Shown: positions 21,384-38,053, counted from the stretch's first letter. The stretch is DNA of 40,586 bases from Chromatiaceae bacterium (GCA_012965975.1 DTRM01000027.1:1-40586), one strand, 5' to 3'. Program-made: numbers and translations. The notes: generated by a model not told the origin, from the sequence alone.

Positions 21384-21827
21384 ATGAAACTACGTGAACT
21401 CATGGCCAAGCTGCATCGATTGCAAGCTGAGGTTAATTCATCGGAATCTGGCCAAGCCGATATAGTTGCGCAGATAGCGTCGCTGGGAGCTGAAATTCGG
21501 ACACGATTGGATGCCTCGGATGAGGCCTTTTCTGATCTTTCTGAGCAAGAATTTCAGTCCTTGATGGCCGATCTTGGGGATCCAAAGCAGGTGACGGTTG
21601 AAGTGGTCTATGCGACGAAAGTTGAACAGGCCATCCATGAGGTTCAACTCGCGCAGGGTGCCAGTATAGAGGATTGTATTATCATGTCCGGTATTCTGGA
21701 TGGCTGTCCGGACATTGATTTATCAGTCAATAAAGTCGGTATTAACGGCGCAGTAAAACCGCTATCTGAGCGGGTAGCCGATACGGATCGTATCGAGATC
21801 TATCGGCCAGTCACTGCCGAAGTCTAA
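21384..21827 (+). CDS. RnfH/UPF0125 (ubiquitin-like) family protein with a ~60-aa N-terminal extension
   Basis: The C-terminal ~87 aa (VTVEVVYATKVEQAIHEV.L..GASIEDCIIMSGIL...PDIDLSVNKVGINGAVKPLSERVADTDRIEIYRP) matches the RnfH/RatB pattern. The N-terminal 60 aa look coiled-coil-like. No start has a clear SD; internal ATG 21564 would give a canonical-length RnfH. Confidence 0.65.
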   Translation: MKLRELMAKLHRLQAEVNSSESGQADIVAQIASLGAEIRTRLDASDEAFSDLSEQEFQSLMADLGDPKQVTVEVVYATKVEQAIHEVQLAQGASIEDCIIMSGILDGCPDIDLSVNKVGINGAVKPLSERVADTDRIEIYRPVTAEV

Positions 21828-23731: not shown

Positions 23732-24580
23732 ATGAGTGAAGGCGTAGGCGGATATAATCAACATGACGCACTGAAGCAGCGGCTTCGCGGTCTGATGGTG
23801 CGCATTAAGCGCGTCGAATGGCAGCGCATCTTAGTGAGCGCATCGGCTTTGGTGGGCGCAGTGGTGGTTTGGCAGCTGCTGGCGATGTACCAGTTCAACT
23901 ACATTATTAGTTTTGAAAATATCCCAACGCCGGTGGTGGTGTTTGAGCAATTTCTCAAACTGATCGTCACCGAAGAGTTCTATCTACATATCGGTGCGAG
24001 TTTGCAGCGCATCGGCATCGCTTTTACGTCGGCGTCGATAATGGGCGTCATTGTTGGCATCTTCATGGGTCGTTCACGCATATTTCACGACATCATGATG
24101 CCCTACATCGAAATTTTAAGGCCGATTCCAGCGGTGGCTTGGATTCCGTTGGCGATCCTGATGTTTCCGACCGAGGAATCCAGCATCATTTATATTACTT
24201 ACCTAGGCACCTTTTTCCCGGTCGTTCTGAACACCGTGCATGGCGTCGAACAAACACCGGAAGCGCTGGTCAGAGCGGCTAAATCGCTGGGTGCCGGTAC
24301 TAAATCGATCCTCTGGCATGTGATTTTGCCGGGCGCCTTGCCCAGTATTATGGCGGGTCTCGCGATCGGTATGGGCGTTGCCTGGTTCTCTTTATTGGCC
24401 GGTGAGATCATTAGTGGTCAATACGGTATTGGCTACTTCACCTGGAACTCCTATACTCTGATTGAGTACCCCAACATTATTATCGGCATGCTGACTATCG
24501 GCGGCTTGGGTACCCTCTCTACCTACCTGGTCAGGCAGGCTTCTAAACCGGCGCTACGCTGGCAGGAGCATAAAGAATGA
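23732..24580 (+). CDS. ABC transporter permease (NitT/TauT family, SsuC/TauC-like)
   Basis: 282 aa, multi-TM, with the BPD_transp_1 EAA-type loop (EALVRAAKSLGAGTKSILWHVILPGALPSIMAGLAIGMGVAW). Confidence 0.9.
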   Translation: MSEGVGGYNQHDALKQRLRGLMVRIKRVEWQRILVSASALVGAVVVWQLLAMYQFNYIISFENIPTPVVVFEQFLKLIVTEEFYLHIGASLQRIGIAFTSASIMGVIVGIFMGRSRIFHDIMMPYIEILRPIPAVAWIPLAILMFPTEESSIIYITYLGTFFPVVLNTVHGVEQTPEALVRAAKSLGAGTKSILWHVILPGALPSIMAGLAIGMGVAWFSLLAGEIISGQYGIGYFTWNSYTLIEYPNIIIGMLTIGGLGTLSTYLVRQASKPALRWQEHKE

Positions 24581-25239
24581 TTCGCTATCTATCTATTGCC
24601 GCGACGTCCATCCGTGCCTACAAGGGCACATTCGTACTGGTCAGTCTGGGCTTTTTTGTGCTCTATTACGCGGCACTTCTGTTGGCAACCATGCTGCGTT
24701 TTGGGGAGATCCCGAATTATGTTGTGTTCCACGACATCATTGGTATCTATGCGTTGGTTTTGCAAGGTACGCCGTCGTTGCAAGACGCTATACCGATTAT
24801 GCTGGGGGAGGCTTGGTTGGAAACGGGCTTCAAGGATCCTCTCTACTATGGGGTGGCGACTTGGAGCTATATGCTGATTCCACCAAAGATGTTGCTGGTT
24901 GCCATAATGGGCATGCTGTTAGGTTTGTTTGCAAGTTTGACGCTGTACAAGCGCAAGCAAGCCTGCTTGTTGGATAACGACCGGCGACTATTTGCGATTG
25001 CAGGAATTGGTACCACCTTTATCAGTTTGACTAGCGCGACCCTCACCTGGGTGGTTTGTTGTGCAACGCCTTCTTGGGTGGTCGCCCTGGCGATGCTGGG
25101 TATGAGTGCGTCGCTGGCGTTAGCCCTGGAGCCGTTGGGTCAGGCGCTTACCCTTGCTGGATTTGGCCTGATGGCTTGGATCATCTGCGTGCAGTTAAAA
25201 CGCTTGGTCGTAACCAACGACCTATCATTGGCGACTTAA
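24577..25239 (+). CDS. integral membrane protein of unknown function, embedded in the ABC operon (vicinal Cys-Cys in a TM helix)
   Basis: 220 aa with about 5 predicted hydrophobic segments. Its ATG overlaps the permease stop (ATGA). The motif TWVVCCATPSW has its cysteines encoded at 25057-25062. I recognise no family. Confidence 0.65.
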   Translation: MIRYLSIAATSIRAYKGTFVLVSLGFFVLYYAALLLATMLRFGEIPNYVVFHDIIGIYALVLQGTPSLQDAIPIMLGEAWLETGFKDPLYYGVATWSYMLIPPKMLLVAIMGMLLGLFASLTLYKRKQACLLDNDRRLFAIAGIGTTFISLTSATLTWVVCCATPSWVVALAMLGMSASLALALEPLGQALTLAGFGLMAWIICVQLKRLVVTNDLSLAT

Positions 25240-25282
25240 GTGCAAGCTCTCCGACTCCGCAATTATTCCCATAGGAAATAGC

Positions 25283-26167
25283 ATGACTGTGACCAGTAAC
25301 TCAGGCGGTATCGCCGCGCAAGACGACGGCGAAGTTGAAATACCGCCTATGGGGAAAACCCATACCACGCAGAGAAAGCCGACCGATGGACACGTAGAAA
25401 TTTCAGGTGTTACCGTGGATTTTGGTCAGGGTGTCGTCGCGGTTAAGGATGCAACCTTGGATATCCAACCCGGTGAATTCGTGTGTCTGCTGGGTCCCTC
25501 CGGTTGCGGAAAATCCACCCTGATGAATACCGTGGCGGCATTTGTAAAGCCGACCACCGGCAGTGTCAAGGTCGATGGAAAAGAGGTTGAAAAACCGGGC
25601 CAGGATCGTGGCATGGTGTTTCAGCAACACTCGCTATTTCCGTGGAAGACGGTCTGTGACAATGTCGCCTTTGGGCCGCTCATGGCCGGTAAGACTAAAT
25701 CACAGGCGCGCAGTATTGCGAGCACCTTTCTTGAGATGGTCGGCCTAAGTGCTTACGAAAATCGTTTTCCCAGTGTGTTGTCTGGCGGGATGAAACAACG
25801 GGTGGGTATTGCCAGAGCATTGGCCAATTATCCGAGTGTGTTATTGATGGATGAGCCTTTTGGTGCGCTGGATGCGCAGACTCGGGCGATGATGCAGGAA
25901 AACTTGCTGCAGATCTGGAGTGAATTTGGCATCACCGTCATCTTCGTCACCCATGATATCGATGAGGCCGTGTTCCTGGCCGATCGTGTTGTCGTGATGA
26001 GTGCCAGCCCCGGTCGTCTGATCGCCGACATCAAAGTGGAGCTGCCACGGCCACGTATTGCGGATATGGTCACCAGCGCCGAATACATCAAGACCAAAAA
26101 ACAATGCATGGATCTGATCCGCCAAGAATCTTTGCGCGCCTTTGAGCAGCAAAGTAATAAAGGCTGA
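25283..26167 (+). CDS. ABC transporter ATP-binding protein (NitT/TauT family, SsuB/TauB-like)
   Basis: Walker A GPSGCGKST, signature LSGGMKQRVGIARAL, Walker B LLMDEPFGALD, and H-loop VTHD. Confidence 0.92.
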   Translation: MTVTSNSGGIAAQDDGEVEIPPMGKTHTTQRKPTDGHVEISGVTVDFGQGVVAVKDATLDIQPGEFVCLLGPSGCGKSTLMNTVAAFVKPTTGSVKVDGKEVEKPGQDRGMVFQQHSLFPWKTVCDNVAFGPLMAGKTKSQARSIASTFLEMVGLSAYENRFPSVLSGGMKQRVGIARALANYPSVLLMDEPFGALDAQTRAMMQENLLQIWSEFGITVIFVTHDIDEAVFLADRVVVMSASPGRLIADIKVELPRPRIADMVTSAEYIKTKKQCMDLIRQESLRAFEQQSNKG

Positions 26168-26201
26168 TTGGGCTAACGAATAGGCATACCCGGCTAGATC
26201 A

Positions 26202-26864
26202 ATGATGAAGCTTGGTACCACTCTCGGACTCGCCGCAATCGTGATCGTTGGGGCCATTGTTGCCAATTTTACGCTTAGGCACGATTCAACTCTTCCCGAG
26301 CAGCTATACGACGTTGCCGTTTTCCCCCCGCAGTCGTTAGAGGCCGTTGATCTTATCGATCAGAATAACGAGGTCGTTGGGATAGAACGCTTCAAGAACA
26401 ACTGGACCTTCCTGTTTGTTGGATTTACTCATTGCGCTCATATTTGTGTGCCGAGTCTTTCGCAGATGGTGTTATTAAAAAAGGCGATCCTCAACCAGCC
26501 AGAGTTTGGGCCTCGGTATCAGGAAAAAGGCTTGGCCTTTGTGTTTGTCAGTGTCGACCCAGCACGGGATACGCCCGAGCATCTGGCGCGCTACATGGGG
26601 AGTTTCGATCCGGGTTTTATCGGCATGACGGGTGAAGAGTCGGCGGTCGAAGACTTTGAGAAACGGCTTAAGGCATTTCACCGCGTGCGCGAAGATAAAA
26701 CCAAACCACAGGGTTACGATATTGATCACAGCGGGGAGATCTTCCTGATTGATCCGGCGGGCAGGCTGGCCGCCAAGTTCCATCCGCCTCTGGATATCAA
26801 CAAGGTGGTGAATCAATTCCAGCTGTTTGTTGGCCACTTCACTGCACCGGTGCCACCAGGTTGA
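26202..26864 (+). CDS. SCO1/SenC-family thioredoxin-fold copper chaperone / thiol-disulfide protein
   Basis: It has an N-terminal membrane anchor, a CxxxC motif (FTHCAHICVPS), and the conserved distal His (DHSGEIFLIDPAGRL). Confidence 0.85.
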   Translation: MMKLGTTLGLAAIVIVGAIVANFTLRHDSTLPEQLYDVAVFPPQSLEAVDLIDQNNEVVGIERFKNNWTFLFVGFTHCAHICVPSLSQMVLLKKAILNQPEFGPRYQEKGLAFVFVSVDPARDTPEHLARYMGSFDPGFIGMTGEESAVEDFEKRLKAFHRVREDKTKPQGYDIDHSGEIFLIDPAGRLAAKFHPPLDINKVVNQFQLFVGHFTAPVPPG

Positions 26865-27526
26865 TCAAAGCAGTCGTCTTGTTGTGGGTTAGAGGCTGGC
26901 TGCTATGCTTGGTCGCTGGCTATGCCAGCCCCGCAGCGGCCGATTATCTGAATGAAGCAGATCAGGCGCCCCATGAGAAATGTGGCTACTGCCACGAACT
27001 CGATGGCAATCCGCGCATGACCCGATATCCACGTCTTGCAGGACAGCAGCGTGACTATATGGTTAAGCAACTTAAGGACTTTCGGTCGGGTCGTCGAACG
27101 GGAGAAATGCAAGGAACAGCGGAATTATTGTCGGACCGTGACATCGACATCGTGTCGGAGTATTTTAGTCAGCAAGCGGTGAAGCTGCCGCAATTGGATA
27201 GCCAGCCGGGCGCCGATCAGCGCTTGGCGAAATCGCTTTATCAGTACGGTGATTCGACAAGGGGATTGCTTGCCTGCAGTGCCTGTCATGGGGCCGTAGG
27301 CTTGGGTGGGGCCGCGATACCACGTTTGGCTGGCCAGCATGAGGCCTACCTATTACAACAGCTGGGCGAATTTAAGGCGGGGCAGCGCAGCAACGATGTG
27401 GAGGCTCAGATGGGCGATATTAGCCGCCTGCTAAGCGATACAGAAATCGCCGTGCTGTCAGCCTACCTGTCTCGCCTTAAGCCCAATAAAAACAATAGTT
27501 TGAAGGTTCTGGATGAGCGTAATTAG
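26861..27526 (+). CDS. dihaem cytochrome c4-type protein
   Basis: It has a signal peptide and two CxxCH motifs (CGYCH, CSACH), each followed by a candidate Met ligand. TTG 26861 overlaps the SCO1 stop. Confidence 0.85.
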   Translation: MIKAVVLLWVRGWLLCLVAGYASPAAADYLNEADQAPHEKCGYCHELDGNPRMTRYPRLAGQQRDYMVKQLKDFRSGRRTGEMQGTAELLSDRDIDIVSEYFSQQAVKLPQLDSQPGADQRLAKSLYQYGDSTRGLLACSACHGAVGLGGAAIPRLAGQHEAYLLQQLGEFKAGQRSNDVEAQMGDISRLLSDTEIAVLSAYLSRLKPNKNNSLKVLDERN

Positions 27527-27529
27527 TCC

Positions 27530-27587
27530 TTGACATCAAACGGTTTTAGGCTAAAATTAAACTTATTATATCATGTTATAACAAGTT
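27530..27587 (+). promoter_or_regulatory. candidate sigma70 promoter with an overlapping 28-bp palindromic operator
   Basis: TTGACA (27530-35), 16-nt spacer, TAAAAT (27552-57). An imperfect palindrome AACTTaTTATAtCATGtTATAAcAAGTT spans 27560-27587 (24 of 28 symmetric) and contains the perfect GntR-type GT-N4-AC core GTTATAAC. It lies directly upstream of the GntR gene. Confidence 0.45.
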
Positions 27588-27605
27588 GGTAGAATAGCGA
27601 TCTAA

Positions 27606-28373
27606 ATGACAACATCGAAGCACCCAATGAAGACAGTCCGTAATGCCTCTGCTGAGCCCATGTATGCGCAGATTAAAGAAGTGCTTAAACAGCGCATTTT
27701 GGATGGCGACTACGAAGTGAACGAACGCTTGCCCTCGGAAAGCGAGATGATGAAGGTGTTCGGTGTGAGTCGTATTACCGTTCGCCAAGCGGTGCGTGAC
27801 CTGCATACGGAGGGGCTGGTATTTAGCGCGCAGGGCAAAGGGACTTTCGTGTCCAGGCCAAAGGCGGTGCAGGACATTCAGCACTTGCAGGGGTTTGGCG
27901 AGGCGATGGCACCGCAAGGTTACGATACCTCGACTCGAGTGGTCGGGATCCAGGAAGTACGCGCCCCACAAGAGGTGGCAGAGGCCTTGAAGATTACGCA
28001 AAACGCCACGGTGGTTGAGTTGACGCGTATTCGGTATTTGAACCGGGAACCGATTTCTGTTGATAACAGTTTTTTCCCGATGAACATTGGTCAGTCGCTA
28101 CAGACTCGTGATTTGACCCAGGATATCTTTCCGATGTTGGAAACGGAATTTGGAGTTGGACTCGGGCATGCAGATTTAAAGATCGAAGCTATCGTCGCCA
28201 CAGCAGAGACGGCGAAACACCTGAACGTTGATAAGGATTCTGCTGTGCTTCGAATTCAACGACTGGTTTTTTCACAAGCAGGCGACCCGATTGATTTTGA
28301 GTATCTGTCCTATCGCGGCGATGCCTTCCAATATCAATTGCGGGTAGGGCGTCAGGAGCCACAGGCAGAATAA
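27606..28373 (+). CDS. GntR-family transcriptional regulator, HutC subfamily (wHTH plus UTRA effector domain)
   Basis: LPSESEMMKVFGVSRITVRQAVRDLHTEGLV is a GntR wHTH. The C-terminal ~150 aa are UTRA-like. Confidence 0.9.
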   Translation: MTTSKHPMKTVRNASAEPMYAQIKEVLKQRILDGDYEVNERLPSESEMMKVFGVSRITVRQAVRDLHTEGLVFSAQGKGTFVSRPKAVQDIQHLQGFGEAMAPQGYDTSTRVVGIQEVRAPQEVAEALKITQNATVVELTRIRYLNREPISVDNSFFPMNIGQSLQTRDLTQDIFPMLETEFGVGLGHADLKIEAIVATAETAKHLNVDKDSAVLRIQRLVFSQAGDPIDFEYLSYRGDAFQYQLRVGRQEPQAE

Positions 28374-28406
28374 TTTATTTAGGACAACTGAGTTAGGAAT
28401 ATCACT

Positions 28407-30167
28407 ATGAACGATAAAACAGATAGCAGTCATGAAGTATTAGAATTTGACGTGCTGGTTATTGGCGGCGGTACTGCGGGCCCAATGGCGGGTGTTCGCG
28501 CTAAAGAGATGAACCCAAAGCTGAGAGTGGCGGTTTTAGAGAAAGCCAACGTGAAACGTAGCGGCTGCATCAGTATGGGCATGGATGGCTTGAACAACGC
28601 CGTTATTCCGGGGCACGCGACGCCCGAACAGTATGTCAAAGAAATCACCGTTGCCAACGATGGAATTGTTAATCAAAAGACCATCATGGCCTATGCGACG
28701 CGTAGCTACGACATGATTAACACCTTGGATAAATGGGGTGTCAAGTTCGAGAAGGATGAGACCGGCGATTACAACGTCAAAAAAGTCCACCACATGGGGG
28801 CCTATGTGTTGCCAATGCCAGAAGGGCATCACATGAAAAAGATCCTTTACCGGCAGCTGCGCAAGAAACGCGTTTCGGTGATCAATCGTTTCATGGCAAC
28901 CCGTTTGTTTAAAGGTAAGGATGGTGCGATCGCCGGTGCGCATGTGGTCAACCCACGCACCGCCGAGACGGCAGTGATTAAGGCTAAAACCGTTATTCTG
29001 TGTACCGGTGCAGCGGGTCGTTTGGGGATGCCAACGTCCGGTTACCTGTTTGGTACCTACGAAAATCCAACCAATGCCGGTGATGGCTATAGCATGGCCT
29101 ATCACGTTGGCGCGGAACTCAGCGGCCTCGAGTGTTACCAGATCAACCCATTGATCAAGGATTACAACGGCCCTGCGTGTGCCTATGTGACGGGTCCTAT
29201 GGGCGGTTACACGGCCAACTCTAAGGGTGATCGCTTCATCGAGTGCGATTACTGGAGCGGCCAAATGATGCTGGAATTCTATAAGGAACTGGAAGGCGGT
29301 AACGGTCCGGTGTTCTTGAAGATCGACCACCTTGCAGAAGAAACCATTTCAGAGATCGAAGTCATTTTGCATTCCAATGAACGCCCCAGTCGGGGCCGCT
29401 TCCACGAAAATCGTGGTACCAATTATCGGGAGCGCATGGTTGAAATGCATATCTCAGAGATTGGGTTTTGCAGTGGCCACAGCGCCTCTGGTATTTGGAC
29501 GGATGAAAATGCGCGCACCACTATTCCGGGACTCTATGCGGCGGGTGATTGTGGCTCCGTGCCACACAACTACATGCTGGGTGCTTTTGTTTATGGTGCG
29601 ATCGCGGCCGAGGATGCGGTCAAATACTGTGCCGAACACGAGCAGTGTGAGATAGACAGTGCCGAGATTGCGGCTGAAAAGGCCCGTGTATTGGCGCCGT
29701 TACAGGTGAAAGATGGCATTCCGGCCGAGCAGATGGAATACAAAATTCGGCGCTTGGTCAACGACTACTTGCAACCACCCAAGGTGACTAAAAAGATGGA
29801 GATCGGCATGGAGCGCTTCGCTGAAATTCGCGCCGACTTGCCTATGTTGCAAGCGAATGATCCGCATGAATTGATGCGTGCGATGGAAGTGCACTTCATT
29901 CTTGATTGCGCCGAGATGGCGGCGACCGCGTCGATGTATCGTACCGAGAGTCGTTGGGGCTTGTATCACTACTACGTCGATCACCCCGATACCGATGATG
30001 AAAAATGGATGTGCCATGTGCAGACCAAGAAAGGTGCAGATGGTCTCCCGGAATGTAGCACGCGCCCTATTGAACCTTACATCGTAGAGTTGGATGAAGA
30101 GGAAATGAGCGCCTATAAGAAATTACGTGTCAGCGATGACGACACCACAGAAACAGCAGGAGTTTGA
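28407..30167 (+). CDS. FAD-dependent oxidoreductase resembling adenylylsulfate reductase alpha subunit (AprA-like; SdhA/FrdA superfamily)
   Basis: 586 aa with an FAD fold (DVLVIGGGTAGPMAG, LEKANVKRSG), AprA-like segments (ERPSRGRFHENRG, ISEIGFCSGHSASGIW), and a C-terminal FAD motif (IPGLYAAGDCG). Confidence 0.8.
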   Translation: MNDKTDSSHEVLEFDVLVIGGGTAGPMAGVRAKEMNPKLRVAVLEKANVKRSGCISMGMDGLNNAVIPGHATPEQYVKEITVANDGIVNQKTIMAYATRSYDMINTLDKWGVKFEKDETGDYNVKKVHHMGAYVLPMPEGHHMKKILYRQLRKKRVSVINRFMATRLFKGKDGAIAGAHVVNPRTAETAVIKAKTVILCTGAAGRLGMPTSGYLFGTYENPTNAGDGYSMAYHVGAELSGLECYQINPLIKDYNGPACAYVTGPMGGYTANSKGDRFIECDYWSGQMMLEFYKELEGGNGPVFLKIDHLAEETISEIEVILHSNERPSRGRFHENRGTNYRERMVEMHISEIGFCSGHSASGIWTDENARTTIPGLYAAGDCGSVPHNYMLGAFVYGAIAAEDAVKYCAEHEQCEIDSAEIAAEKARVLAPLQVKDGIPAEQMEYKIRRLVNDYLQPPKVTKKMEIGMERFAEIRADLPMLQANDPHELMRAMEVHFILDCAEMAATASMYRTESRWGLYHYYVDHPDTDDEKWMCHVQTKKGADGLPECSTRPIEPYIVELDEEEMSAYKKLRVSDDDTTETAGV

Positions 30168-30168
30168 C

Positions 30169-30402
30169 ATGCCATTAATTCAAAGTAGCAGCCGCGCGCC
30201 GGTTACCATTAATTCCGAGGCTTGCATCGCCGACAAGGGTTGTACCGTTTGTGTTGATGTCTGCCCGTTAGACCTGTTGGTCATTGATATGGCCAATGGT
30301 ACTGCGGTCATGAAGTACGACGAATGCTGGTACTGTCTACCGTGCGAATTGGACTGTCCCACCGATGCAGTCAGCGTCGAAATTCCCTACCTATTGAAAT
30401 AA
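30169..30402 (+). CDS. small 2x[4Fe-4S] ferredoxin resembling the N-terminal ferredoxin domain of AprB (lacks the AprB C-terminal tail)
   Basis: 77 aa with CIADKGCTVCVDVCPLDLLVID...ECWYCLPCELDCPTDAV (compare AprB ...ICPNDLM..D...CWECYSCVK.CPQGAI). An AGGAG SD precedes ATG 30169, which lies 1 nt after the flavoprotein stop. Confidence 0.8.
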   Translation: MPLIQSSSRAPVTINSEACIADKGCTVCVDVCPLDLLVIDMANGTAVMKYDECWYCLPCELDCPTDAVSVEIPYLLK

Positions 30403-30415
30403 GCAGGAGTATTCC

Positions 30416-31378
30416 ATGGCGATTAGTTTTGATGAAGGCTTAGACCTGGATGAGGTTTTGGAAAACCTCAGTGATGCCGATGCTGGCGTGCGCAGAGTCG
30501 CAGTGATGGAGCTTCGCGAGTTGGATGAGGACGATGCCATTCCACTGGCAGTCAAGGCCTTGTCCGACAGCGATGCCAATGTGCGCAAAGAGGCGGCGCA
30601 GGTGATGGATGAGTTTGAAGGTGCCGAGACCATTCAGGCGTTGGTGGGTGCATTGGCCGATAGCGATGAGGGTGTGCGTACCACGGCCGCTGCAGTGCTG
30701 GCCGAGACCCAGGATCCGACCGCGGGGCCAATTTTGATGCAGGGAGTGGGCAGCACCAATATCTTCGTCAAGGCTGCTAGCCTGCATGGCTTGCGGGGGT
30801 TGCGACTGGCTGAATCCGAACCCCTTGCGTTGGAGAATTTAGAGCACGCCGAACCGACGGTGCGGCGCGAGTCCGTTGGGGTACTGGCCTATCTTAAGAG
30901 TGTGTCGATACTGCCGGTCTTGATGAACACGGCGGCCAACGACAGCGATGAAAACGTCCGACGCGCGGCGATCGGCTCACTGGTTTATTGTCCGGATGAT
31001 CAAGTCACCGAAACGCTGACTAAGGGTTTGAGTGATGACAATTGGCTGGTGCGTGAAGAGTCCGCTTTTGTGCTGGGTAAGATTGCACCGACCTCGGCGG
31101 TCAACGCACTCATCGATGCCATGAGTGATGAGTATTGGCAGGTTCGGGTGAAGACGGCAGCCGCGTTGGGCAAGCTCAAAGATCCGGCTGCGGTCGATGT
31201 GCTGGGTCAGGCATTGTCATACAACATCAGCAACCTACGCAAAGAATCTGCGGCGGCGCTTGGCGAGATCAAGTCACCCAACGCATTACCGTTCCTGCAG
31301 GTTGCTACTGAAGATGTGGATCCCGATGTGCGTAAGATCGCGCAATGGGCCATTGACCAGATTAATAAAGGAGACTAG
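30416..31378 (+). CDS. HEAT-repeat (PBS-lyase HEAT-like) protein
   Basis: 320 aa made of about 9-10 tandem ~30-aa repeats of the type D.D..VR..AA.ALG......A...L...L.D. Confidence 0.85.
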   Translation: MAISFDEGLDLDEVLENLSDADAGVRRVAVMELRELDEDDAIPLAVKALSDSDANVRKEAAQVMDEFEGAETIQALVGALADSDEGVRTTAAAVLAETQDPTAGPILMQGVGSTNIFVKAASLHGLRGLRLAESEPLALENLEHAEPTVRRESVGVLAYLKSVSILPVLMNTAANDSDENVRRAAIGSLVYCPDDQVTETLTKGLSDDNWLVREESAFVLGKIAPTSAVNALIDAMSDEYWQVRVKTAAALGKLKDPAAVDVLGQALSYNISNLRKESAAALGEIKSPNALPFLQVATEDVDPDVRKIAQWAIDQINKGD

Positions 31379-31380
31379 CT

Positions 31381-31707
31381 GTGGCGTTTATCGTTGGTGA
31401 TGGCTGCATACGTTGTAAATACACCGATTGTGTTGATGTCTGTCCGGTGGAAGATTGTTTCCGGGTAGGTCCAAACTTTCTGGTGATCGATCCGGTCACC
31501 TGTATCGATTGCACGCTCTGTGTGCCGGAGTGTCCTGCCGAGGCTATCTTTGCAGAGAAGGATGTGCCGGAGGATCAGCAGGAATTCATTGCATTGAATG
31601 CGGAGCTGGCCAAGGTATGGCCCGGTATCAATGACCCGATTGACCCCTTGGAAGATGCCGATGACTGGGTCGACGAAAAAGCTAAGCTCCAGTATCTGGA
31701 ACGTTAG
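31381..31707 (+). CDS. fdxA: 7Fe ferredoxin, Azotobacter FdI type ([3Fe-4S][4Fe-4S])
   Basis: 108 aa with a GTG start. AFIVGDGCIRCKYTDCVDVCPVEDCF..GPNFLVIDP..CIDCTLCVPECPAEAIFAE.DVPEDQQEFIALNAELAKVWP is near-collinear with Azotobacter/Pseudomonas FdxA. Confidence 0.9.
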   Translation: MAFIVGDGCIRCKYTDCVDVCPVEDCFRVGPNFLVIDPVTCIDCTLCVPECPAEAIFAEKDVPEDQQEFIALNAELAKVWPGINDPIDPLEDADDWVDEKAKLQYLER

Positions 31708-31734: not shown

Positions 31735-32310
31735 ATGGGTGAGTACCTGACACTGCTGTTTGCCACTATTTTTGTTAACAATATGGTGTTGTCCCGGTTT
31801 CTGGGGCTGTGCCCCTTTATGGGTGTGTCGAAGAAACTGGAGCCCGCCATCGGCATGGGTTTAGCCACTGCGTTCGTGTTGACACTGGCCTCCGTGTGTA
31901 GCTATCTGGCCAATGAATATCTGTTGCAGCCGTTCGGACTCGAGTATCTGAAGACCGTCACCTTTATTTTGGTCATCGCGGTCATTGTTCAGGGCACTGA
32001 GATGGTGTTGCGCAAGACCAGCCCGCTATTGCACAGCGTATTGGGTATCTATCTACCCTTGATCACCACCAACTGTGCGGTATTGGGCATCGCACTGCTG
32101 AATGTCCAGGAAGACAACAATTTTGTTCGTTCGGCGTTGTATGGTTTTGGTGGTGCAACAGGTTTTACATTGGTGATGGTGTTGTTTGCATCCATTCGTG
32201 AGCGTCTGGAACTGGCAGATGTCCCTGAATCTTTTCGCGGTGCGCCGATTGCCTTGATGACGGCCGGATTGATGTCGGTAGCCTTCATGGGCTTTGCCGG
32301 CATGGCCTAG
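31735..32310 (+). CDS. rnfA: Rnf/Rsx electron transport complex subunit A
   Basis: 191 aa, collinear with E. coli RsxA ([35 protein letters not shown]). Confidence 0.93.
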
Positions 32311-32321
32311 GGAGTAGCCGC

Positions 32322-32876
32322 GTGTCAGTGTTATTGCTTACCGCCCTTGCTTTGGCTTTTGGAGTTTTCCTTGGCTTTGTCGCGATCAAATTCCGCGTGG
32401 AAGGTGATCCCATTGTCGAAAAAATCGATACCCTGTTACCCCAAACCCAATGTGGTCAGTGTGGTTATCCGGGCTGTCGTCCCTATGCCGAGGCCATTGC
32501 CAGCGAAGAGGCCGAAATCAATCAATGCCCACCCGGTGGTGAGGCCGGTGTTCAGGCGCTGGCCGAACTGCTAGGTAAAGAGCCGATGCCGCTGAACCCG
32601 GACAACGGGGTTGCCGAAGAGGGTCCGGCAATGCTGGCGCTGATCGATGAAGAGACCTGCATCGGTTGCACCAAGTGTGTGCAGATTTGTCCAGTCGACG
32701 CGATTTCTGGCGCTCCAGGTTTTATGCATACGGTACTGGATGTTTATTGCACCGGTTGCGAGCTGTGTCTGCCACCCCTATGTCCTGTTGACGACTGCAT
32801 CATTATGGTTCCGGTGGAGGCCAACATCAGGACTTGGAAATGGTCAAACCCTGAGGCCGTGGGTGCGGTTCTGTGA
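32322..32876 (+). CDS. rnfB: Rnf/Rsx complex subunit B (Fe-S)
   Basis: It has an N-terminal anchor, the [16 protein letters not shown] cluster, and two ferredoxin motifs ([16 protein letters not shown]; [18 protein letters not shown]). The second motif has one extra residue before the CP compared with E. coli RsxB. GTG start. Confidence 0.9.
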
Positions 32877-34429
32877 ACAAGCTGTGGCGATTCAATGGTG
32901 GGGTTAAACTCAGTGGTTTCAAGTCGTTGTCTAATGCCGCTGGGGTAAAGCGTCCGCCGCTGCCTAAACGGCTATATTTACCGCTGCAACAGCATATCGG
33001 CGCACCGGCAGAAGCCCTGGTGGAGGTAGGTGATAAAGTTTACAAAGGGCAGTTGATCGCGGCGTCGAGTTCGTTTATCAGTGCGCCCGTACATGCGTCC
33101 TCTTCAGGCACGGTTGTCGAACTCAAAAAACATATCATCGCGCACCCCTCCGGTATTGCGGAAGACTGCATTGTCATTGAGACCGATGGCAAAGATGAAT
33201 GGCACTCCTCTATCAGTGCATTATCGAATCCCGATGCACTGGATCTTGATGAACTCAGAAGCCGTATCAGTGAGGCCGGAGTCGTTGGTCTGGGCGGCGC
33301 GGTGTTTCCCTCTGGCGCCAAGCTAAAACCTACTCGGAGCATCGATACACTGGTTATCAACGGTGCGGAGTGTGAGCCCTATATAACGTGCGATGATCGT
33401 CTTATGCGCACGCGTCCTCGAGAGATTATTCGAGGGCTGTTGCTGCTCAGGCGTCTGGTCAACCCCACCGAATGCATCATCGCGGTGGAAGACAATAAAC
33501 CCGAAGCGGTCCAGCATTTACGACGGGCCATTGATGAATTGAAGTCAGAAGGCATTGGCAGTGTTAGCACGGTGCGGGTGGTGGCTGTGCCTACCCTGTT
33601 TCCTGCGGGCGGTGAGAAACAACTCATCAAGGTGCTGACCGGAAAGGCAGTCCCTCAGCGAGGGTTACCCTATGAGGTAGGGGTGGTGTGTCTCAACGTG
33701 GGCACCACCGCTGCAGTCTATGATGCCATCTATGAGGGCAAACCGCTGATATCGCGGTTAGTCACCATCACCGGCCCCAATGTAAAGCATGCCGCCAACT
33801 ACGAAGTGCCCATCGGGACGCCGGTGCAGCACATGCTGGATATTGCCGGCGCTGATGATACGGGGGGTGGCGAACAGAATCGACTGATCATGGGTGGCCC
33901 GATGATGGGGCACGTTCTGCCGAATGCGCAAGTGCCAGTGGTCAAGGCGACCAATTGTATCCTGGTGGAACCTAAGGCCGATGTCGTTCCGACCACTGCC
34001 ATGCCGTGTATCCGCTGTGGCAGCTGCGCCGACGTCTGCCCCATGCATCTGTTACCGCAACAACTCTATTGGCACGCACGCGGCAAGGCATTTGATAAGC
34101 TGGATCATCACAATTTGGCCGATTGTATCGAGTGTGGTTGTTGTGCGGTCGCGTGCCCGTCGAAAATTCCATTGGTGCACTATTTCCGTTTTGCTAAAAC
34201 TGAAAAGAAAGAGTTTGATGCCAAGGCGATTTTTGCTGACCAGTCCCGCGTGCGCATGCAAATTCGCGAGGCTCGTATCGCACAGCGCGAGCGCGAACTG
34301 GAAGAACGCAAGGCGAAACGTAAGGCAGATCGTTTGAAAAAGAAAAAGGCGAAAGCCGCCGCTGCTGCCGCCAGCGCAAACGCTTCGGTCGATGATCAAG
34401 ATCAGGCCTCTAACGGAGTATCGGTCTGA
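32873..34429 (+). CDS. rnfC: Rnf/Rsx complex subunit C (NADH/FMN-binding, 2x[4Fe-4S])
   Basis: 518 aa with [36 protein letters not shown] and [12 protein letters not shown], plus a Lys/Ala-rich C-terminal tail. GTG 32873 overlaps the rnfB stop. Confidence 0.9.
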
Positions 34430-35487
34430 TGTCTGATAACGCCTCAACGTCTCAAGCGACCTCACCCTTTGTACCGTCGAGTACCTCAGTGGGCGCAGTC
34501 ATGCGCAAGGTTATCTATGCGCTGATCCCTGGGGTGGTTCTCTATATGATTTTGTTTGGTTGGGGCATCGTCATTAACATTATATTGGCCAGTGTTAGCG
34601 CGTTGCTGTTTGAAGCCATCATGTTGATGGTGCGTGGCCGCCCGTTGCGCATGTTTCTGTTCGACGGGAGTGCTGTGGTGACCGCTATACTCCTGACGCT
34701 GGCACTGCCGCCGATGCTGTCGTGGTGGATTCCGGTACTCGGCAGCTTCTTTGCCATTGTGGTAGCGAAACATCTTTACGGTGGTTTGGGTTATAACCCC
34801 TTTAATCCGGCCATGATGGCCTATGCGATTTTGTTGGTGTCCTTTCCATTACAACTTAGCCTATGGGCCGGGCCATTGGACCTCATTGCACAGCCGCTGA
34901 CCTTTGTCGAAACGTTGAATTACTCGTTGTTTCATCAGTTACCGGGTGCAATGGCTTTTGATAGTCTTACCGCTGCTACGCCACTGGATTATCTACGCAC
35001 TCAGGTAGGTCTCGGTCAAACAGTAGAAGCGATCACGCGTGCGCCGATATTTGGTTTGCTGGGTGGGCAGGGTATGGAGTGGGTCAATAGCGCATTTCTG
35101 CTGGGTGGTCTCTGGTTGTTGTATATGCGCATCATAAGTTGGCATATACCGGTGGCGGTGCTGGCATCCATCGGTTCGATCTCTGGTCTCGCCTATTTTC
35201 TCGACCCTGCGGTCTTCGCGAATCCATCGGTTCATCTGTGGGGCGGAGCGAGTATCCTTTGCGCATTTTTCATCGCCACCGATCCGATTACTGCATCGAC
35301 GACCCCTTTAGGGCGGATTATTTACGGCCTAGGTATCGGTGGTCTGACCTTCGCTATTCGGACATGGGGCGGTTATCCCGATGGGGTTGCGTTCGCGGTG
35401 TTGCTAATGGGCCTAGTCGTTCCCTTGCTTGATCATTACACGGTGCCCAAGGTATTTGGTGCAAGGACTGACCGTGGCAATCAGTAG
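34429..35487 (+). CDS. rnfD: Rnf/Rsx complex subunit D
   Basis: 352 aa, polytopic, NqrB/RnfD-like (GGLGYNPFNPAM, TAATPLD flavinylation-region equivalent, ATDP.T). Its ATG overlaps the rnfC stop by 1 nt. Confidence 0.9.
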   Translation: MSDNASTSQATSPFVPSSTSVGAVMRKVIYALIPGVVLYMILFGWGIVINIILASVSALLFEAIMLMVRGRPLRMFLFDGSAVVTAILLTLALPPMLSWWIPVLGSFFAIVVAKHLYGGLGYNPFNPAMMAYAILLVSFPLQLSLWAGPLDLIAQPLTFVETLNYSLFHQLPGAMAFDSLTAATPLDYLRTQVGLGQTVEAITRAPIFGLLGGQGMEWVNSAFLLGGLWLLYMRIISWHIPVAVLASIGSISGLAYFLDPAVFANPSVHLWGGASILCAFFIATDPITASTTPLGRIIYGLGIGGLTFAIRTWGGYPDGVAFAVLLMGLVVPLLDHYTVPKVFGARTDRGNQ

Positions 35488-36148
35488 CGAGCACAAAGGT
35501 ATGGTTGTTGCCGGCTGGCTACTGGCCGTCTCGGCGTTATTGGGAACGGGTCTATTGGCGGTCGTCAATCAGCACTCCGAACCTTATATCGCAGAAAATG
35601 AACGCATAATGCTACTTCGCAGCTTGAACGAAGTGGTGCCCATAGAAAGCTATGACAATGAGATCTTGGAGGACCAAATGATGGTCCTGGCCCCCGAGTA
35701 TCTGGGTAGCAAGAAAGCCTCAATCGTCTACCGCGCAAGAAAGGCGGGCAAGCCGGTCGCAGTGGTACTGACCGTGGTCGCACCGAATGGTTACAGTGGC
35801 CCCATCGTGTTATTGGTCGGCATAGATTATAGCGGCGATATCACCGGAGTGCGGGTGGTTAAACATCGCGAAACGCCGGGTCTTGGCGACGCCATCGAGA
35901 TTGAACGCAGTGACTGGATAGAAAGGTTCACTGGAAAATCGCGCCGTAACCCGGGCAGAGCAGGTTGGAAGGTGAAGCGAGACGGCGGTGAATTCGATCA
36001 ACTGACCGGTGCAACGATTACGCCGAGGGCTGTGGTCGCTGCGGTTTCTGGTGCGCTCGAGTATTTTGAACACAATAGAGACAATCTGTTTATCTCGAAC
36101 GCTGAAATTCAGGCGCGAGACGAAGAAGCAAAGGGCCTACAGCAATAG
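35474..36148 (+). CDS. rnfG: Rnf/Rsx complex subunit G (FMN-binding)
   Basis: It has an N-terminal TM segment and the FMN_bind motif HRETPGLGD ... [14 protein letters not shown]. The start is uncertain: GTG 35474 is preferred, ATG 35501 is possible, and ORF start 35429 overlaps rnfD by 59 nt. Confidence 0.85.
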
Positions 36149-36165
36149 GTCATGGAGAATTTAGC

Positions 36166-36861
36166 ATGAGTGACAATGTATACGGCGACATCGTAACAAA
36201 TGGTCTGTGGACCAATAACCAAGCCTTGGTGGCGTTACTCGGTCTTTGTCCGTTGCTGGCAGTATCGTCAACCGCCATCAACGGTCTGGGTTTGGGCGTT
36301 GCGACCATGGCGACCCTGACACTGACCAACCTGATTGTGGCGTCCATCCGGCGATGGATTTTGCAGGAGATTCGCATCCCTATGTTTGTGATCATCATTG
36401 CCTGCGTGGTGACCGCTATCGAATTATTAATGAACGCCCATCTGCACGACCTCTATCGTGTATTGGGAATATTCGTGCCGTTGATCGTCACTAACTGCGC
36501 GATCATTGGCCGTGCCGAAGCCTTTGCATCGAAAAATAATGTCGTCCGCTCAACGCTGGATGGATTGGTTATGGGGCTGGGTTTTGCACTGGTGCTGGTA
36601 TTCCTGGGGATCATCCGCGAGATACTCGGCTATGGCACTATTTTTCGCGGTGCAGAGCTGATGCTCGGTCCTTGGGCATCGGATCTGACGATAACCCTCG
36701 CCAGTAACTACGACGGTTTGTTGCTTGCCATATTACCGCCCGGTGCGTTTATGGCGCTGGCCGTGATTATCGCACTGAAGAACAAGATTGATCGTGTGCA
36801 GCAGAGACGTAGTGCAAACGCAGTTTCTGTAGCGGTACCCCTGCAGTCATCGCGGGCCTAG
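36166..36861 (+). CDS. rnfE: Rnf/Rsx complex subunit E
   Basis: 231 aa, collinear with E. coli RsxE ([39 protein letters not shown]). Confidence 0.93.
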
Positions 36862-36863
36862 TC

Positions 36864-37310
36864 ATGATCGAAGAACAGGCATTGGTCATCGCGGTGGAGA
36901 AGGGTGCGGTTGTTGTCCAGACCCAGCGGGCATCAACCTGTGGCAGTTGTGCGACAAAACAGGGTTGTGGCACATCGGCGCTGGCTAAGGGAATGGGCAA
37001 GGGATACACGGAGTTACGGGTTGTGTCAGATTTGGATGTTAATGTCGGTGATACAGTGATTCTGGCGATCGATGAATCGTCGTTGCTTAAAGGTGCTGTG
37101 TTTGTCTACTTGTTGCCGTTGATCGCCATGATCCTGGGGGGTATCACGGGCGACTATTGTGCAAATCTGTTCGCCTTGAATAGCGAATGGCTCAGCATTG
37201 TTTTCGGTGTTGCAGGGCTCGTCGGCAGCTTGTTGTTGATACGTCTAAATCCGTATGCGCATCGATTTCAACAACAAATTCAACCAAGGATGGTGTGCAG
37301 GAAGTATTAA
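36864..37310 (+). CDS. rseC: RseC/MucC-family protein (SoxR-reducing system component)
   Basis: 148 aa with the N-terminal domain carrying CGSC....GCG (QRASTCGSCATKQGCGTS) followed by two TM helices. It starts 2 nt after rnfE. Confidence 0.8.
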   Translation: MIEEQALVIAVEKGAVVVQTQRASTCGSCATKQGCGTSALAKGMGKGYTELRVVSDLDVNVGDTVILAIDESSLLKGAVFVYLLPLIAMILGGITGDYCANLFALNSEWLSIVFGVAGLVGSLLLIRLNPYAHRFQQQIQPRMVCRKY

Positions 37311-37674
37311 TCCAGTCGTAGTAATCGGCTTGGGGACGGTACCGCGTACTCTCGAAAAGACCGCTATCATGAATTTCAGGGATTCTATGGGTAACGACAT
37401 CCCAAATGATCTCGGTATCGAGTGCAAAATAATGATGCGCATTGATATCACGGAATTTTGCGGCCTCAGACCATTCAATCTCTGGCATACCAGAAAGCAA
37501 ATCGGGTGGTAGCTTGTTGGCGGCTTCACCAATGACTTGAAGGTTGAACAGAACCGCGTCCAGAAGAACTTCATTGTCGCAGAATGCTTAAAACGATAAC
37601 TGACTAACAGTGCGTTGGATCCTCTCTGCCGCTTTAACAATATCGTCCAGATACAGCAGCGGGTCACGTGACAC
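37192..37674 (-). pseudogene. HepT (DUF86) toxin-like gene interrupted by an in-frame TAA
   Basis: Reading from GTG 37674 gives VSRDPLLYLDDIVKAAERIQRTVSQLSF*AFCDNEVLLDAVLFNLQVIGEAANKLPPDLLSGMPEIEWSEAAKFRDINAHHYF..., with the stop at 37588-37590. The DUF86 Rx4HxY motif is present (RDINAHHY). The C-terminus runs abnormally long into the 3' end of rseC. Confidence 0.6.
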
Positions 37675-38053
37675 GAATCAGATCCTTCTCCACAGCTGGG
37701 CGAGCACGAGGTTTCAGCCCGGATTCGGTTACCAGATCAACCACATTTCCTAAAAGCTACTCGAGAAAACGATTCGGTTTTATGTCAGCATCGAAAGTAG
37801 CTGGGCCATCGAACTCGACAAGGACATCGACGTCGCTATCGTTGCATGCATCGTCACGCGCGGTCGAACCGAACAGCCCTAGATGTCTGACGGAATAGTT
37901 ATTGATGATTTCATCCTGATGTGATGTCAGGATTTCCAGATCCTGTTCTCGAAGCGCAGTGGGGAATGGGGGAGGTCGTTGTATGTTTCGGGCGGCTGGG
38001 CAGAAATCGCATTGATCGGGGCTGGTTGGTCTGATCGTATTTACAAAAGCCAT
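37664..38053 (-). pseudogene. MNT (MntA-type nucleotidyltransferase) antitoxin-like gene interrupted by an in-frame TAG
   Basis: The sequence reads ...HLGLFGSTARDDACNDSDVDVLVEFDGPATFDADIKPNRFLE*LLGNVVDLVTESGLKPRARPAVEKDLIRVT*. The TAG at 37757-37759 sits where family members continue (LE.LLG..VDLVT). The terminal TGA (37664-66) overlaps the HepT GTG start, giving typical toxin-antitoxin coupling. Confidence 0.6.

Follow-up and report, generated by a model that had tools for sequence, protein, structure and literature searches.

Which substrate is acted upon by a flavoprotein that resembles the AprA subunit of adenosine 5'-phosphosulfate (APS) reductase and whose gene lies before, and not after, that of its small iron-sulfur partner? 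This question is raised by positions 28407–30402 of a 40,586 nt stretch of DNA from a Chromatiaceae bacterium (GCA_012965975.1, DTRM01000027.1), and the whole stretch is called the window here. Genuine AprBA loci have the gene order aprB-aprA and are accompanied by sat and by aprM or qmoABC. An earlier note on the window had described a 586 amino acid (aa) AprA-like flavoprotein and a 77-aa partner in the reversed order, and had proposed a paralogue of AprBA with a different substrate and the same electron wire of flavin adenine dinucleotide (FAD) plus 2x[4Fe-4S]. The phylogeny and the active site support this proposal. The pair is very likely a ferredoxin-linked terminal oxidoreductase for an imported compound other than APS, 3'-phosphoadenosine 5'-phosphosulfate (PAPS) or fumarate. 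The functional unit exceeds two genes, as it adds a HEAT-repeat protein, an ATP-binding cassette (ABC) importer, a GntR regulator and FdxA-Rnf. The module for import, regulation and ferredoxin supply around the pair is an addition beyond the earlier note.

Both open reading frames (ORFs) are genuine; they are long frames with hidden Markov model scores of up to 1040 bits, far above chance. The ferredoxin ORF begins two bases past the flavoprotein stop codon, and the order is A then B. The ORF positions and all motifs quoted previously were found in the translations: the flavoprotein contains LEKANVKRSG, ERPSRGRFHENRG, CSGHSASGIW and GLYAAGDCG, and the ferredoxin contains CPLDLLVID...ECWYCLPCELDCPTDA. 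An alternative GTG start at position 30127 would give a 91-aa ferredoxin; homologues are uniformly 77 aa. The flavoprotein has the Pfam domains FAD_binding_2 (E 2.5e-37) and Succ_DH_flav_C. The small protein has eight cysteines, arranged as C-x5-C-x2-C-x3-CP and C-x2-C-x2-C-x3-CP, matches 4Fe-4S dicluster families in Pfam and retains a tryptophan after the fifth cysteine that is the equivalent of Trp-B48 in AprB.

AprB combines a ferredoxin segment with a three-stranded sheet and with a long tail wrapped around AprA; the sheet and tail segments are at B69–B148 (PMC2211403). Alignments of the 77-aa protein with solved structures cover residues 7–63 (of 166) in 3gyx_B, 2–64 (of 150) in 1jnr_B and 5–58 (of 104) in the beta subunit of MtPAPSR, the PAPS reductase of Methanothermococcus thermolithotrophicus. 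Because the alignments are confined to the ferredoxin segment, the AprB sheet and tail segments are absent from the 77-aa protein, which agrees with its earlier description as an AprB reduced to a bare ferredoxin. With the AprB model TIGR02060 the 77-aa protein reaches 27.7 bits where 135.65 is the cut-off, and the scores of other ferredoxin families are equal or higher. By sequence alone the protein is only weakly AprB-specific; it is AprB-like in the ferredoxin core alone.

ORFs of at least 100 aa that were judged plausible genes were scanned across the 40.6-kb window with Pfam and NCBIfam. No sat, aprM, qmoABC, cysC or cysH is among them, in accord with the earlier statement that sat, aprM and qmo are missing next to the reversed pair. 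The non-canonical order and the tail-less B subunit are indeed present here, but they are not specific to this locus and are the rule across the wider AprAB-like assemblage. The related flavoproteins P0127, P0129, P0130 and P0139 each have a gene for a 64–78-aa ferredoxin downstream, and A-then-B order with a tail-less B had already been described in 2021 for AprAB-like paralogues of Clostridia and archaea (PMC8477390).

The sole curated model that the flavoprotein reaches is NF006131 (PRK08275), with 1040.2 bits against a cut-off of 587 and residues 8–578 aligned to positions 5–575 of the 577 in the profile. The AprA models are below cut-off (TIGR02061, 169.8 versus 641.75 bits; NF005331, 303 versus 557), and the curated Sdh, Frd, NadB and TcuA models score lower than the AprA models (120–160 bits against cut-offs of 450–930 for Sdh, Frd and NadB). 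Membership of a characterised family with a known substrate had been named earlier as an outcome that would speak against a new paralogue; the protein is in no such family, and its own model carries the generic name 'fumarate reductase/succinate dehydrogenase flavoprotein subunit'. No study of NF006131/PRK08275 or PRK13800 was found in the literature searched, where absence is no proof that none exists; the nearest accounts there are those of MtPAPSR, a PAPS reductase, and of the 'AprAB-like' paralogues of other phyla (DiSCo).

The closest solved structure in a sequence search is the alpha subunit of MtPAPSR (8a8o, E 1e-64), followed by Archaeoglobus fulgidus AprA (AfAprA, 1e-42); a search with the family profile gives 1e-162 and 1e-112, respectively. 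An AlphaFold2 (AF2) model of the flavoprotein has a predicted local distance difference test score (pLDDT) of 88 and a predicted template modelling score (pTM) of 0.91. Comparison of this model by Foldseek gives template modelling (TM) scores of 0.87/0.92 with 8a8o_A, with a root mean square deviation of 2.3 A, of 0.86/0.78 with AfAprA and of about 0.8 with E. coli FrdA. The flavoprotein is 29% identical to AfAprA and 29.5% to MtPAPSR, which are 40% identical to one another, and 22–24% identical to the flavoproteins of fumarate reductase, succinate dehydrogenase and L-aspartate oxidase.

A neighbour-joining tree was made from capped distances with 200 bootstraps and included E. coli SdhA, FrdA and NadB and an AsfA set defined by published primers; an earlier run with saturated distances gave an identical topology. 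The window family forms a clade in 100% of the bootstraps. AprA, MtPAPSR and two relatives form a clade apart from it, also at 100%, and the flavoprotein is outside this AprA/PAPS-reductase clade, as the proposal of a paralogue had it. The window family groups with several uncharacterised groups of 36–40% identity (97%), and this assemblage is joined with the AprA/PAPSR assemblage at 62%. On these comparisons the flavoprotein is placed as a member of a widespread, strongly conserved AprA-like branch that has no assigned function.

The active site was analyzed by aligning AfAprA and MtPAPSR, each in its own numbering, with 24 relatives and by comparing eight members of the window family at 22 mapped positions. 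The roles of the AprA residues are from Meyer & Kuever 2008 (PMC2211403). Of the residues in contact with the sulfo group, Asn74 and His398 are kept (Asn63 and His358), and Trp234 and Arg265 are replaced by Tyr218 and Leu249. The adenine clamp of Arg317 and Leu278 is replaced by Met287 and Thr262. Among the ribose-phosphate contacts, Val273, Gly274 and Tyr95 are replaced by Ala257, Cys258 and Glu79, and His446 is kept as His387. A check of these contacts had been advised in the earlier note; Arg-A265, Trp-A234 and the clamp formed by Arg-A317 and Leu-A278 are all missing. The alignment near Arg265 is gap-free and is anchored on a conserved KD dipeptide. MtPAPSR retains Asn57, Trp206, Arg237, Arg276 and His346 where the window protein has Asn63, Tyr218, Leu249, Met287 and His358.

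The replacement residues are near-identical in all eight family members, including an actinobacterial fusion protein; 3 of the 22 positions deviate, in one member each, and Tyr218 and Leu249 are invariant within the members aligned. Since the replacements are near-identical across the eight members, the site as aligned is different and well defined, not decayed. The histidine of covalent FAD attachment (FrdA His44) corresponds to Gly53, and glycine is also present in AprA. FrdA residues His232, Thr234, Glu245, Arg287, His355 and Arg390 correspond to Asn247, Leu249, Tyr260, Ser284, Ile352 and Ser384, with positions 287 and 355 less surely aligned. As every defining residue of fumarate reductase, succinate dehydrogenase and aspartate oxidase is replaced, the function stated by the NCBI product name is very probably wrong. 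These three enzymes were rejected as identities of the flavoprotein on the catalytic residues and on the partner subunit.

Close homologues are 75–92% identical and come from sulfur-oxidising Gamma- and Betaproteobacteria; the hosts of close homologues include Sulfuriflexus, Sedimenticola thiotaurini, Thioalkalivibrio sulfidiphilus, Acidihalobacter, Thermithiobacillus, Halothiobacillus and Thiobacillus. Members with 67–81% identity are found in Pseudomonas, Variovorax, Herbaspirillum, Massilia, Caballeronia, Halomonas, Marinobacter, Methylomonas, Methylobacterium and Acidithiobacillus, and homologue identity is 55–92% from Actinobacteria and Cyanobacteria to Proteobacteria. In a scan of one genome per species the family is present in at least 592 species (592 of the 600 matched stretches listed are confirmed relatives). 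Plasmids or chromids carry the gene in rhizobia, relatives of Burkholderia, cyanobacteria, A. caldus, Tsukamurella and Nonomuraea, and Acinetobacter baumannii records in the plasmid collection also carry it.

For a census of the neighbourhood, all ORFs in 89 loci, which are not phylogenetically independent, were clustered and their presence was verified by tblastn. The 77-aa ferredoxin is present in 86 loci, the HEAT-repeat protein in 81, the ABC ATPase in 76, the SsuA/TauA-like binding protein in 75 and the ABC permease in 74. The GntR/UTRA regulator is found in 72 loci directly 5' of the flavoprotein gene. DUF971, which has been tied to Fe-S cluster maintenance by cofitness (bioRxiv 072470), is found in 58. 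No further catabolic enzyme is conserved in the 89 neighbourhoods, and this points to the flavoprotein as the terminal catalyst. In actinobacterial members a single chain combines the flavoprotein with the HEAT protein at its C-terminus (P0122, 925 aa; NCBIfam NF010374). This natural fusion argues that the HEAT protein is a physical partner of the flavoprotein.

Sister clades with 36–40% identity (loci L221–L223, L224 and L009) keep the layout, but adjoin TctCBA, an NhaC-type antiporter-family protein or YeiH. The retention of the gene pair beside different transporters suggests that importer-coupled AprA-like reductases form an entire radiation whose substrates differ. A variant within the family is seen at positions 8986–15089 of L095, from the Pseudanabaena galeata plasmid pPg_02. 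The GntR gene is replaced there by a Crp-family regulator gene together with the gene of a long LysR-type regulator, and Mrp/NBP35, YeiH and TauE/SafE genes are directly 3' of the HEAT gene.

The electron supply varies between loci. An FdxA-type ferredoxin gene follows the HEAT gene in 31 of the 89 loci, including loci with no Rnf. Rnf adjoins the module in five, all from gammaproteobacterial sulfur oxidisers and with the window among them, and also in L220, a locus outside the census. Ferredoxin-NADP reductase (Fpr) is with the module in 10 loci and a 1190-aa Pyr_redox_2 protein in nine. Rnf and Fpr are established ferredoxin-linked systems; a reductase role for the 1190-aa protein is suggested by its Pyr_redox_2 domain alone. 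The layout of reductase, ferredoxin and terminal enzyme suggests that the flavoprotein works in the reductive direction, with ferredoxin as the donor. The 1180–1190-aa protein is encoded at positions 17070–20642 of L006 and also in L005, L012, L015, L016, L025, L030, L032 and L071. In Halothiobacillus, Thermithiobacillus, Acidithiobacillus and some Betaproteobacteria it stands where Rnf or Fpr is found elsewhere. It has Cys-rich regions besides the central Pyr_redox_2 domain and may be a dedicated NAD(P)H:ferredoxin reductase.

From the observed gene content, family, fold, loss of APS- and fumarate-site residues and conserved neighbourhood, a scheme can be proposed in which complex formation, the direction in which electrons flow and, most of all, the substrate are predictions. 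A NitT/TauT-type ABC transporter with an SsuA/TauA-like binding protein would import a small anion, and the GntR/UTRA repressor would sense this anion or its product. The flavoprotein with non-covalent FAD, the 77-aa 2x[4Fe-4S] subunit and the HEAT partner would reduce the substrate. Reduced ferredoxin would be formed from NAD(P)H, here via Rnf against the membrane potential and elsewhere by Fpr or the 1190-aa oxidoreductase. FdxA would then pass electrons to the two [4Fe-4S] clusters in the beta subunit, from where they would reach FAD by way of the conserved tryptophan. Reduced FAD may attack the sulfo group of an organosulfur anion that is not a nucleotide (a sulfonate, a sulfate ester or a thiosulfonate), and sulfite would be released for assimilation with no need for O2. 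An attack of this kind is proposed because Asn and His, which in AprA hold the sulfite oxygens at N5 of FAD, are kept, while the AMP/adenine contacts and the catalytic Arg are lost.

Several independent hints, each weak, point to a sulfur oxyanion group. Asn63 and His358, two of the four residues in contact with the sulfo group, are still present, and the nearest characterised relatives all form sulfite at N5 of FAD (PMC10322725). The importer's binding protein has SsuA and TauA as its only solved relatives. For AprAB-like paralogues in Clostridia and archaea, a link to genes of sulfur assimilation and to nitT/tauT transporters has been described (PMC8477390). Sbp, a bona fide sulfate-binding protein (NF008022, 548 bits), is encoded at most 10 kb away in 6 of the 89 loci, from four lineages. 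These loci (L055, L061, L068, L086, L047 and L036) are from Caballeronia, Trinickia, a Betaproteobacterium (two copies) and a Methylococcaceae metagenome-assembled genome, and in Trinickia sbp is directly upstream, with the gene end about 300 nt before the flavoprotein start. A YeiH-family protein comes after the module in 10 loci and is also beside sister clade P0127; the NCBIfam name is 'putative sulfate export', with a match under the cut-off, and the Pfam match to PF03601 is clear. TauE/SafE is found in four loci.

These hints have to be weighed against a number of counter-points, and a ferredoxin-driven, sulfite-releasing reduction of an imported organosulfur anion is put forward tentatively for that reason, as a possibility somewhat short of even. 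Sbp, YeiH and TauE are each present in at most 11% of loci that are not independent, and the binding protein is under the SsuA and TauA cut-offs. Cys and Met make up 6.8% of the flavoprotein (family median 5.3%), and with this richness it shows no sulfur-sparing composition; the family medians are 1.4% for the binding protein and 1.1% for HEAT, and the window's own binding protein has 3.25%. Scavenging also seems needless for the many hosts that oxidise sulfur and live in reduced-sulfur habitats. The lost Arg265 is otherwise invariant among sulfite-forming relatives, sister clades are paired with TctCBA or NhaC-type transporters that are typical for carboxylates, and the adjacency of Rnf is confined to one gammaproteobacterial lineage and could be positional. 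To our knowledge, flavin-driven reductive cleavage of an unactivated C-S bond is without precedent. A narrower version, in which an AprA-derived flavoenzyme would carry out a new O2-independent desulfonation with a low-potential ferredoxin, an FAD-N5 sulfite adduct and HEAT as an obligatory partner, is unlikely.

The substrate could also be a non-sulfur anion that is reduced or oxidised, either an unsaturated or substituted carboxylate or a nitro or other N- or P-bearing nutrient, with the sulfur neighbours coincidental. This is somewhat unlikely but deserves serious weight. Redox chemistry at C=C/C-C bonds of carboxylates is usual for the superfamily, and the sister clades, with the same A-then-B genes, have the TctCBA, NhaC-type or YeiH transporters noted above. 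The binding protein and transporter are under every curated sulfonate, taurine and nitrate cut-off, the regulator is of the HutC/PhnF type, and the module occurs in autotrophs, cyanobacteria and rhizobial plasmids, like nutrient-acquisition modules of many kinds. However, the residues for dicarboxylate binding and catalysis in Frd, Sdh and NadB are all replaced, and the two retained AprA-site residues are contacts of a sulfo group. The protein is nearest to sulfite-forming enzymes in sequence, profile and fold, and the only solved relatives of the binding protein bind sulfonates.

It is improbable that the pair is an electron-transfer module feeding an oxygenase or other enzyme encoded elsewhere, as has been proposed for AsfA/AsfB. 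The AsfA/AsfB pair also has a flavoprotein with a small ferredoxin after it and is linked to an SsuA-like binding protein, but AsfA belongs to a different clade, 21–24% identical and on the Sdh/Frd/NadB side of the tree. An oxygenase or other acceptor enzyme is conserved in none of the 89 neighbourhoods, and the substrate-channel residues are strictly conserved in the family. Since separate reductases (Fpr, Rnf or the 1190-aa protein) and FdxA already precede the pair in the chain, the pair appears to be its end.

Operation in the oxidative direction, as a dehydrogenase that passes substrate electrons to FdxA and here via Rnf to NAD+, is given little weight as well. Rnf is reversible, and the hosts of the Rnf-linked version are sulfur oxidisers. 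AprBA runs oxidatively in sulfur oxidisers (PMC2211403). Reduction of a low-potential FdxA-type ferredoxin would, however, be uphill from a flavin at the potential of about -45 mV reported for AprA (PMC2211403), and MtPAPSR has no measurable reverse reaction (PMC10322725). The versions linked to Fpr and to the 1190-aa protein resemble classical chains in which electrons go from NAD(P)H via ferredoxin to a terminal enzyme.

A genuine ferredoxin-dependent APS/PAPS reductase for assimilatory sulfate reduction, like MtPAPSR, is very improbable and was rejected on site residues, model cut-offs and tree placement: MtPAPSR is the best structural and sequence match, its beta subunit is also shortened (104 aa) and Sbp is beside the module in six loci, but Arg265, Arg317, Trp234, Leu278, Val273/Gly274 and Tyr95 are replaced where MtPAPSR keeps its Asn, Trp, Arg, Arg and His, TIGR02061 and NF005331 are far under cut-off, the flavoprotein is excluded from the 100%-supported Apr/PAPSR clade, the window contains none of sat, cysDN and cysC, which are not recurrent in the annotated neighbourhood clusters either, and a dedicated SsuA-like importer would be pointless for APS.

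The tentative organosulfur assignment and the firmer one of a ferredoxin-linked terminal enzyme both depend on the genes around the pair, and the features of the window in this region are collected in Table 1.

Table 1. Features of the gene pair and its surroundings in the window (positions counted from the first letter of the stretch)
Feature	Position	Strand	Basis and remarks
RnfH-family protein	21384-21827	+	Pfam Ub-RnfH E 7e-23, NCBIfam NF002490; upstream edge of rnf cluster
Periplasmic substrate-binding protein of NitT/TauT-type ABC importer, SsuA/TauA-like, 463 aa	22166-23557	+	Pfam NMT1_2/NMT1
ABC permease, TauC/SsuC-like	23732-24580	+	Pfam BPD_transp_1; NCBIfam TauC, SsuC and NtrB all under cut-off
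Predicted membrane protein, 220 aa, between permease and ATPase genes	24577-25239	+	No Pfam match; has CC pair
ABC ATPase, TauB/SsuB-like	25283-26167	+	Pfam ABC_tran; NCBIfam taurine/nitrate ATPase models about 254-260 bits, under cut-off
SCO1/SenC-family protein, lineage-specific accessory	26202-26864	+	Pfam SCO1-SenC E 1.5e-32
Dihaem c-type cytochrome, lineage-specific accessory	26861-27526	+	Pfam Cytochrom_C, Cytochrome_CBB3
Sigma-70-like promoter match TTGACA-16-TAAAAT	27530-27557	+	11/12 consensus, best in 17 kb; consensus match only
Near-palindrome CTTATTATATCATGTTATAACAAG with perfect GTTATAAC inside	27562-27585	+	3' of promoter-like site, 20 nt 5' of gntR start
GntR-family regulator with UTRA effector domain, HutC/PhnF type	27606-28373	+	Pfam GntR and UTRA
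Flavoprotein, alpha subunit, presumed catalytic, 586 aa	28407-30167	+	NF006131/PRK08275 match; AprA/PAPS-reductase-like fold
2x[4Fe-4S] ferredoxin, beta subunit, 77 aa from ATG	30169-30402	+	Pfam Fer4_7, Fer4_10 and related families
HEAT-repeat protein, 320 aa, probable third subunit or scaffold	30416-31378	+	Pfam HEAT_2 E 6e-72
FdxA-type ferredoxin with DUF3470 tail, proposed donor to beta subunit	31381-31707	+	NCBIfam FdxA_Protbact, 145 versus 135 bits
rnfABCDGE, proposed source of reduced ferredoxin	31735-36861	+	RnfA and RnfE by Pfam; genes between by synteny
RseC/MucC-family protein, end of rnf cluster	36864-37310	+	Pfam RseC_MucC E 7e-32; same place in L220

The module sits inside an rnf cluster, with rnfH upstream and fdxA-rnfABCDGE-rseC downstream. 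The genes between RnfA and RnfE were assigned by synteny with L001, L003 and L220, where RnfB, C, D and G have their Pfam families, and RnfH flanks the module in L001 and L003 also. The gaps between genes from gntR to rseC are 1 to 33 nt, except for an overlap of rnfD and rnfG of about 60 nt that depends on the start codon, and no convincing terminator was seen across this run in the window. The same layout is found in L220, a relative that is 92% identical, and in S. thiotaurini and T. sulfidiphilus. Positions 27530–27585 represent a candidate promoter and GntR/UTRA operator of a gntR-flavoprotein operon. The binding protein gives 120.9 bits with the NCBIfam model SsuA_fam, under the cut-off of 163.5, and its sole relatives in the PDB are SsuA 3uif (1.3e-18), TauA 6ssy and SsuA 3e4r and 2x26.

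The genes for the membrane protein and the SCO1/SenC protein are at the same positions in 7 of the 89 loci, with the cytochrome gene in six of these, and all three are found again in L220. The loci with SCO1/SenC and the membrane protein span several gammaproteobacterial lineages, and the 220-aa protein is always beside SCO1/SenC. In L220 an ApbE flavin-transferase gene (13188–14249) comes after rseC. Positions 37310–38041 of the window have no + strand ORF of 100 aa or more, and the next gene is that of a divergent 2-oxoglutarate (2OG)-Fe(II) oxygenase. An Rfam scan of the window gave three tRNAs only, with no riboswitch or other RNA clue to a ligand. Other genes in the window are ribE, ribBA, ribH, nusB, thiL, pgpA, folE2, parE, parC, relA, gltX and glnS and those for a GGDEF/EAL protein, a polyprenyl synthase, rubrerythrin, DUF3501, DUF1015, the three tRNAs, the 2OG oxygenase and a glycosyltransferase. 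The rubrerythrin gene (8759–9190) followed by the DUF3501 gene (9263–9865) looks like a conserved pair.

The seven-gene module is found at 55–92% identity across Proteobacteria, Cyanobacteria and Actinobacteria, often on plasmids or chromids, and its flavoprotein is labelled fumarate reductase/succinate dehydrogenase despite the missing defining residues. Of the bacterial relatives of the APS/PAPS reductases in which the active site is clearly re-tooled, the family is the closest. Knowledge of the substrate would reveal in what way the FAD-N5 sulfite chemistry, or else the scaffold as such, was put to a new use. If an organosulfur substrate is correct, the module would represent an O2-independent route of sulfur scavenging with relevance for rhizosphere, marine and clinical bacteria, and would account for one task that Rnf and FdxA have in aerobic sulfur oxidisers. 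The known desulfonating classes are flavin/O2 monooxygenases (SsuD), 2-oxoglutarate dioxygenases (TauD) and glycyl-radical or thiamine diphosphate (ThDP) lyases. A desulfonating activity, if true, would be a fourth mechanistic class, in at least 592 species that include Pseudomonas, Acinetobacter baumannii, rhizobia, cyanobacteria and sulfur oxidisers. Metagenomic surveys that take AprA-like matches as evidence of sulfate reduction or sulfite oxidation should leave out the NF006131 family. The value of the family is as a well-defined, tractable target for function discovery, with a misleading annotation corrected.

Among known systems, fumarate reductase, succinate dehydrogenase and L-aspartate oxidase share the fold (TM about 0.8) and the FAD_binding_2 and Succ_DH_flav_C domains with the window flavoprotein. 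The partner of fumarate reductase and succinate dehydrogenase differs, as the window has a 77-aa dicluster ferredoxin in place of the three-cluster SdhB/FrdB and has no membrane anchor.

AsfA/AsfB (asfRABC) are known from arylsulfonate desulfonation in Pseudomonas putida S-313 and from Cupriavidus metallidurans (Rmet_4334/5); they are biochemically uncharacterised, and a role in feeding electrons to SsuD has been proposed. They are similar to the window pair in that an FAD_binding_2 flavoprotein is followed by a small ferredoxin beside an SsuA-like binding protein and in the link to sulfonate use. They differ in having a LysR regulator (AsfR) and no HEAT partner, where the window module has GntR/UTRA and HEAT. 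An AsfA/AsfB identity, suggested by the taxa (Variovorax, Pseudomonas, Cupriavidus and actinobacteria) and by the A-then-B layout, was rejected. The published asfA primers match exactly in none of the 89 family loci, and metagenome loci that match both primers encode proteins 21–24% identical to the window flavoprotein. The primer-defined AsfA branch is on the Sdh/Frd/NadB side of the neighbour-joining tree (94%). The CH34 megaplasmid that carries asfAB has no match to the family better than 1e-40; Rmet_4334 was not located in 250 kb of the unannotated CH34 replicon, where only an unrelated Sdh/NadB-like gene was found. AsfAB may be regarded, by analogy, as a functional analogue of the window pair.

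Two further observations relate to the comparison with AsfAB. L093 (CH34 megaplasmid, 869–919 kb) has an unannotated cluster of three genes on the minus strand at positions 24833–28399. The products are an Fe-S protein of 212 aa, an Sdh/NadB-like flavoprotein of 549 aa in which an HPTG motif is present, and a NuoF-like protein of 414 aa; the cluster is neither AsfAB nor the window family. Both published asfA/asfB primers have a match in L100, L120, L137, L173 and some 30 further metagenome loci, which represent a bona fide AsfA-AsfB set. The AsfA proteins so defined are 530–590 aa, with an LSGMEF motif and an amplicon of about 1.07–1.13 kb, and form a separate uncharacterised FAD_binding_2 branch.

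AprBA (A. fulgidus 1jnr/2fja; Desulfovibrio gigas 3gyx) interconverts APS with AMP and sulfite through a sulfite adduct at N5 of FAD. It has in common with the window pair the superfamily, the domain order, the FAD motifs and a glycine at the position of covalent FAD attachment. The equivalents of Asn74, His398 and His446, the ferredoxin core and the equivalent of Trp-B48 are also retained. The differences are an identity of 29%, replacement of Arg265, Trp234, Arg317, Leu278, Val273, Gly274 and Tyr95, a B subunit with no sheet or tail, the order A-B and not B-A, and no sat, aprM or qmo in the window. AprBA has a membrane quinone-linked partner, whereas the window has a soluble ferredoxin supply.

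MtPAPSR (8a8o; Jespersen et al. 2023, PMC10322725) is the best match of the window protein by sequence, profile and fold. The two are alike in a compact alpha subunit with none of the AprA insertions, a beta subunit reduced towards the ferredoxin core, and non-covalent FAD with 2x[4Fe-4S]. They differ in that identity is 29.5% and the window protein is outside the MtPAPSR clade and has none of Arg237, Trp206 and Arg276. The window module has no nearby sat, APS kinase or PAP phosphatase gene, and none is recurrent in the annotated neighbourhoods. It adds a HEAT subunit, a GntR regulator and an ABC importer, and its beta subunit is 77 aa against 104. The AprAB-like paralogues described by Neukirchen & Sousa 2021 (PMC8477390) are also near nitT/tauT transporters, as is the window pair, and have been proposed to function in sulfur assimilation.

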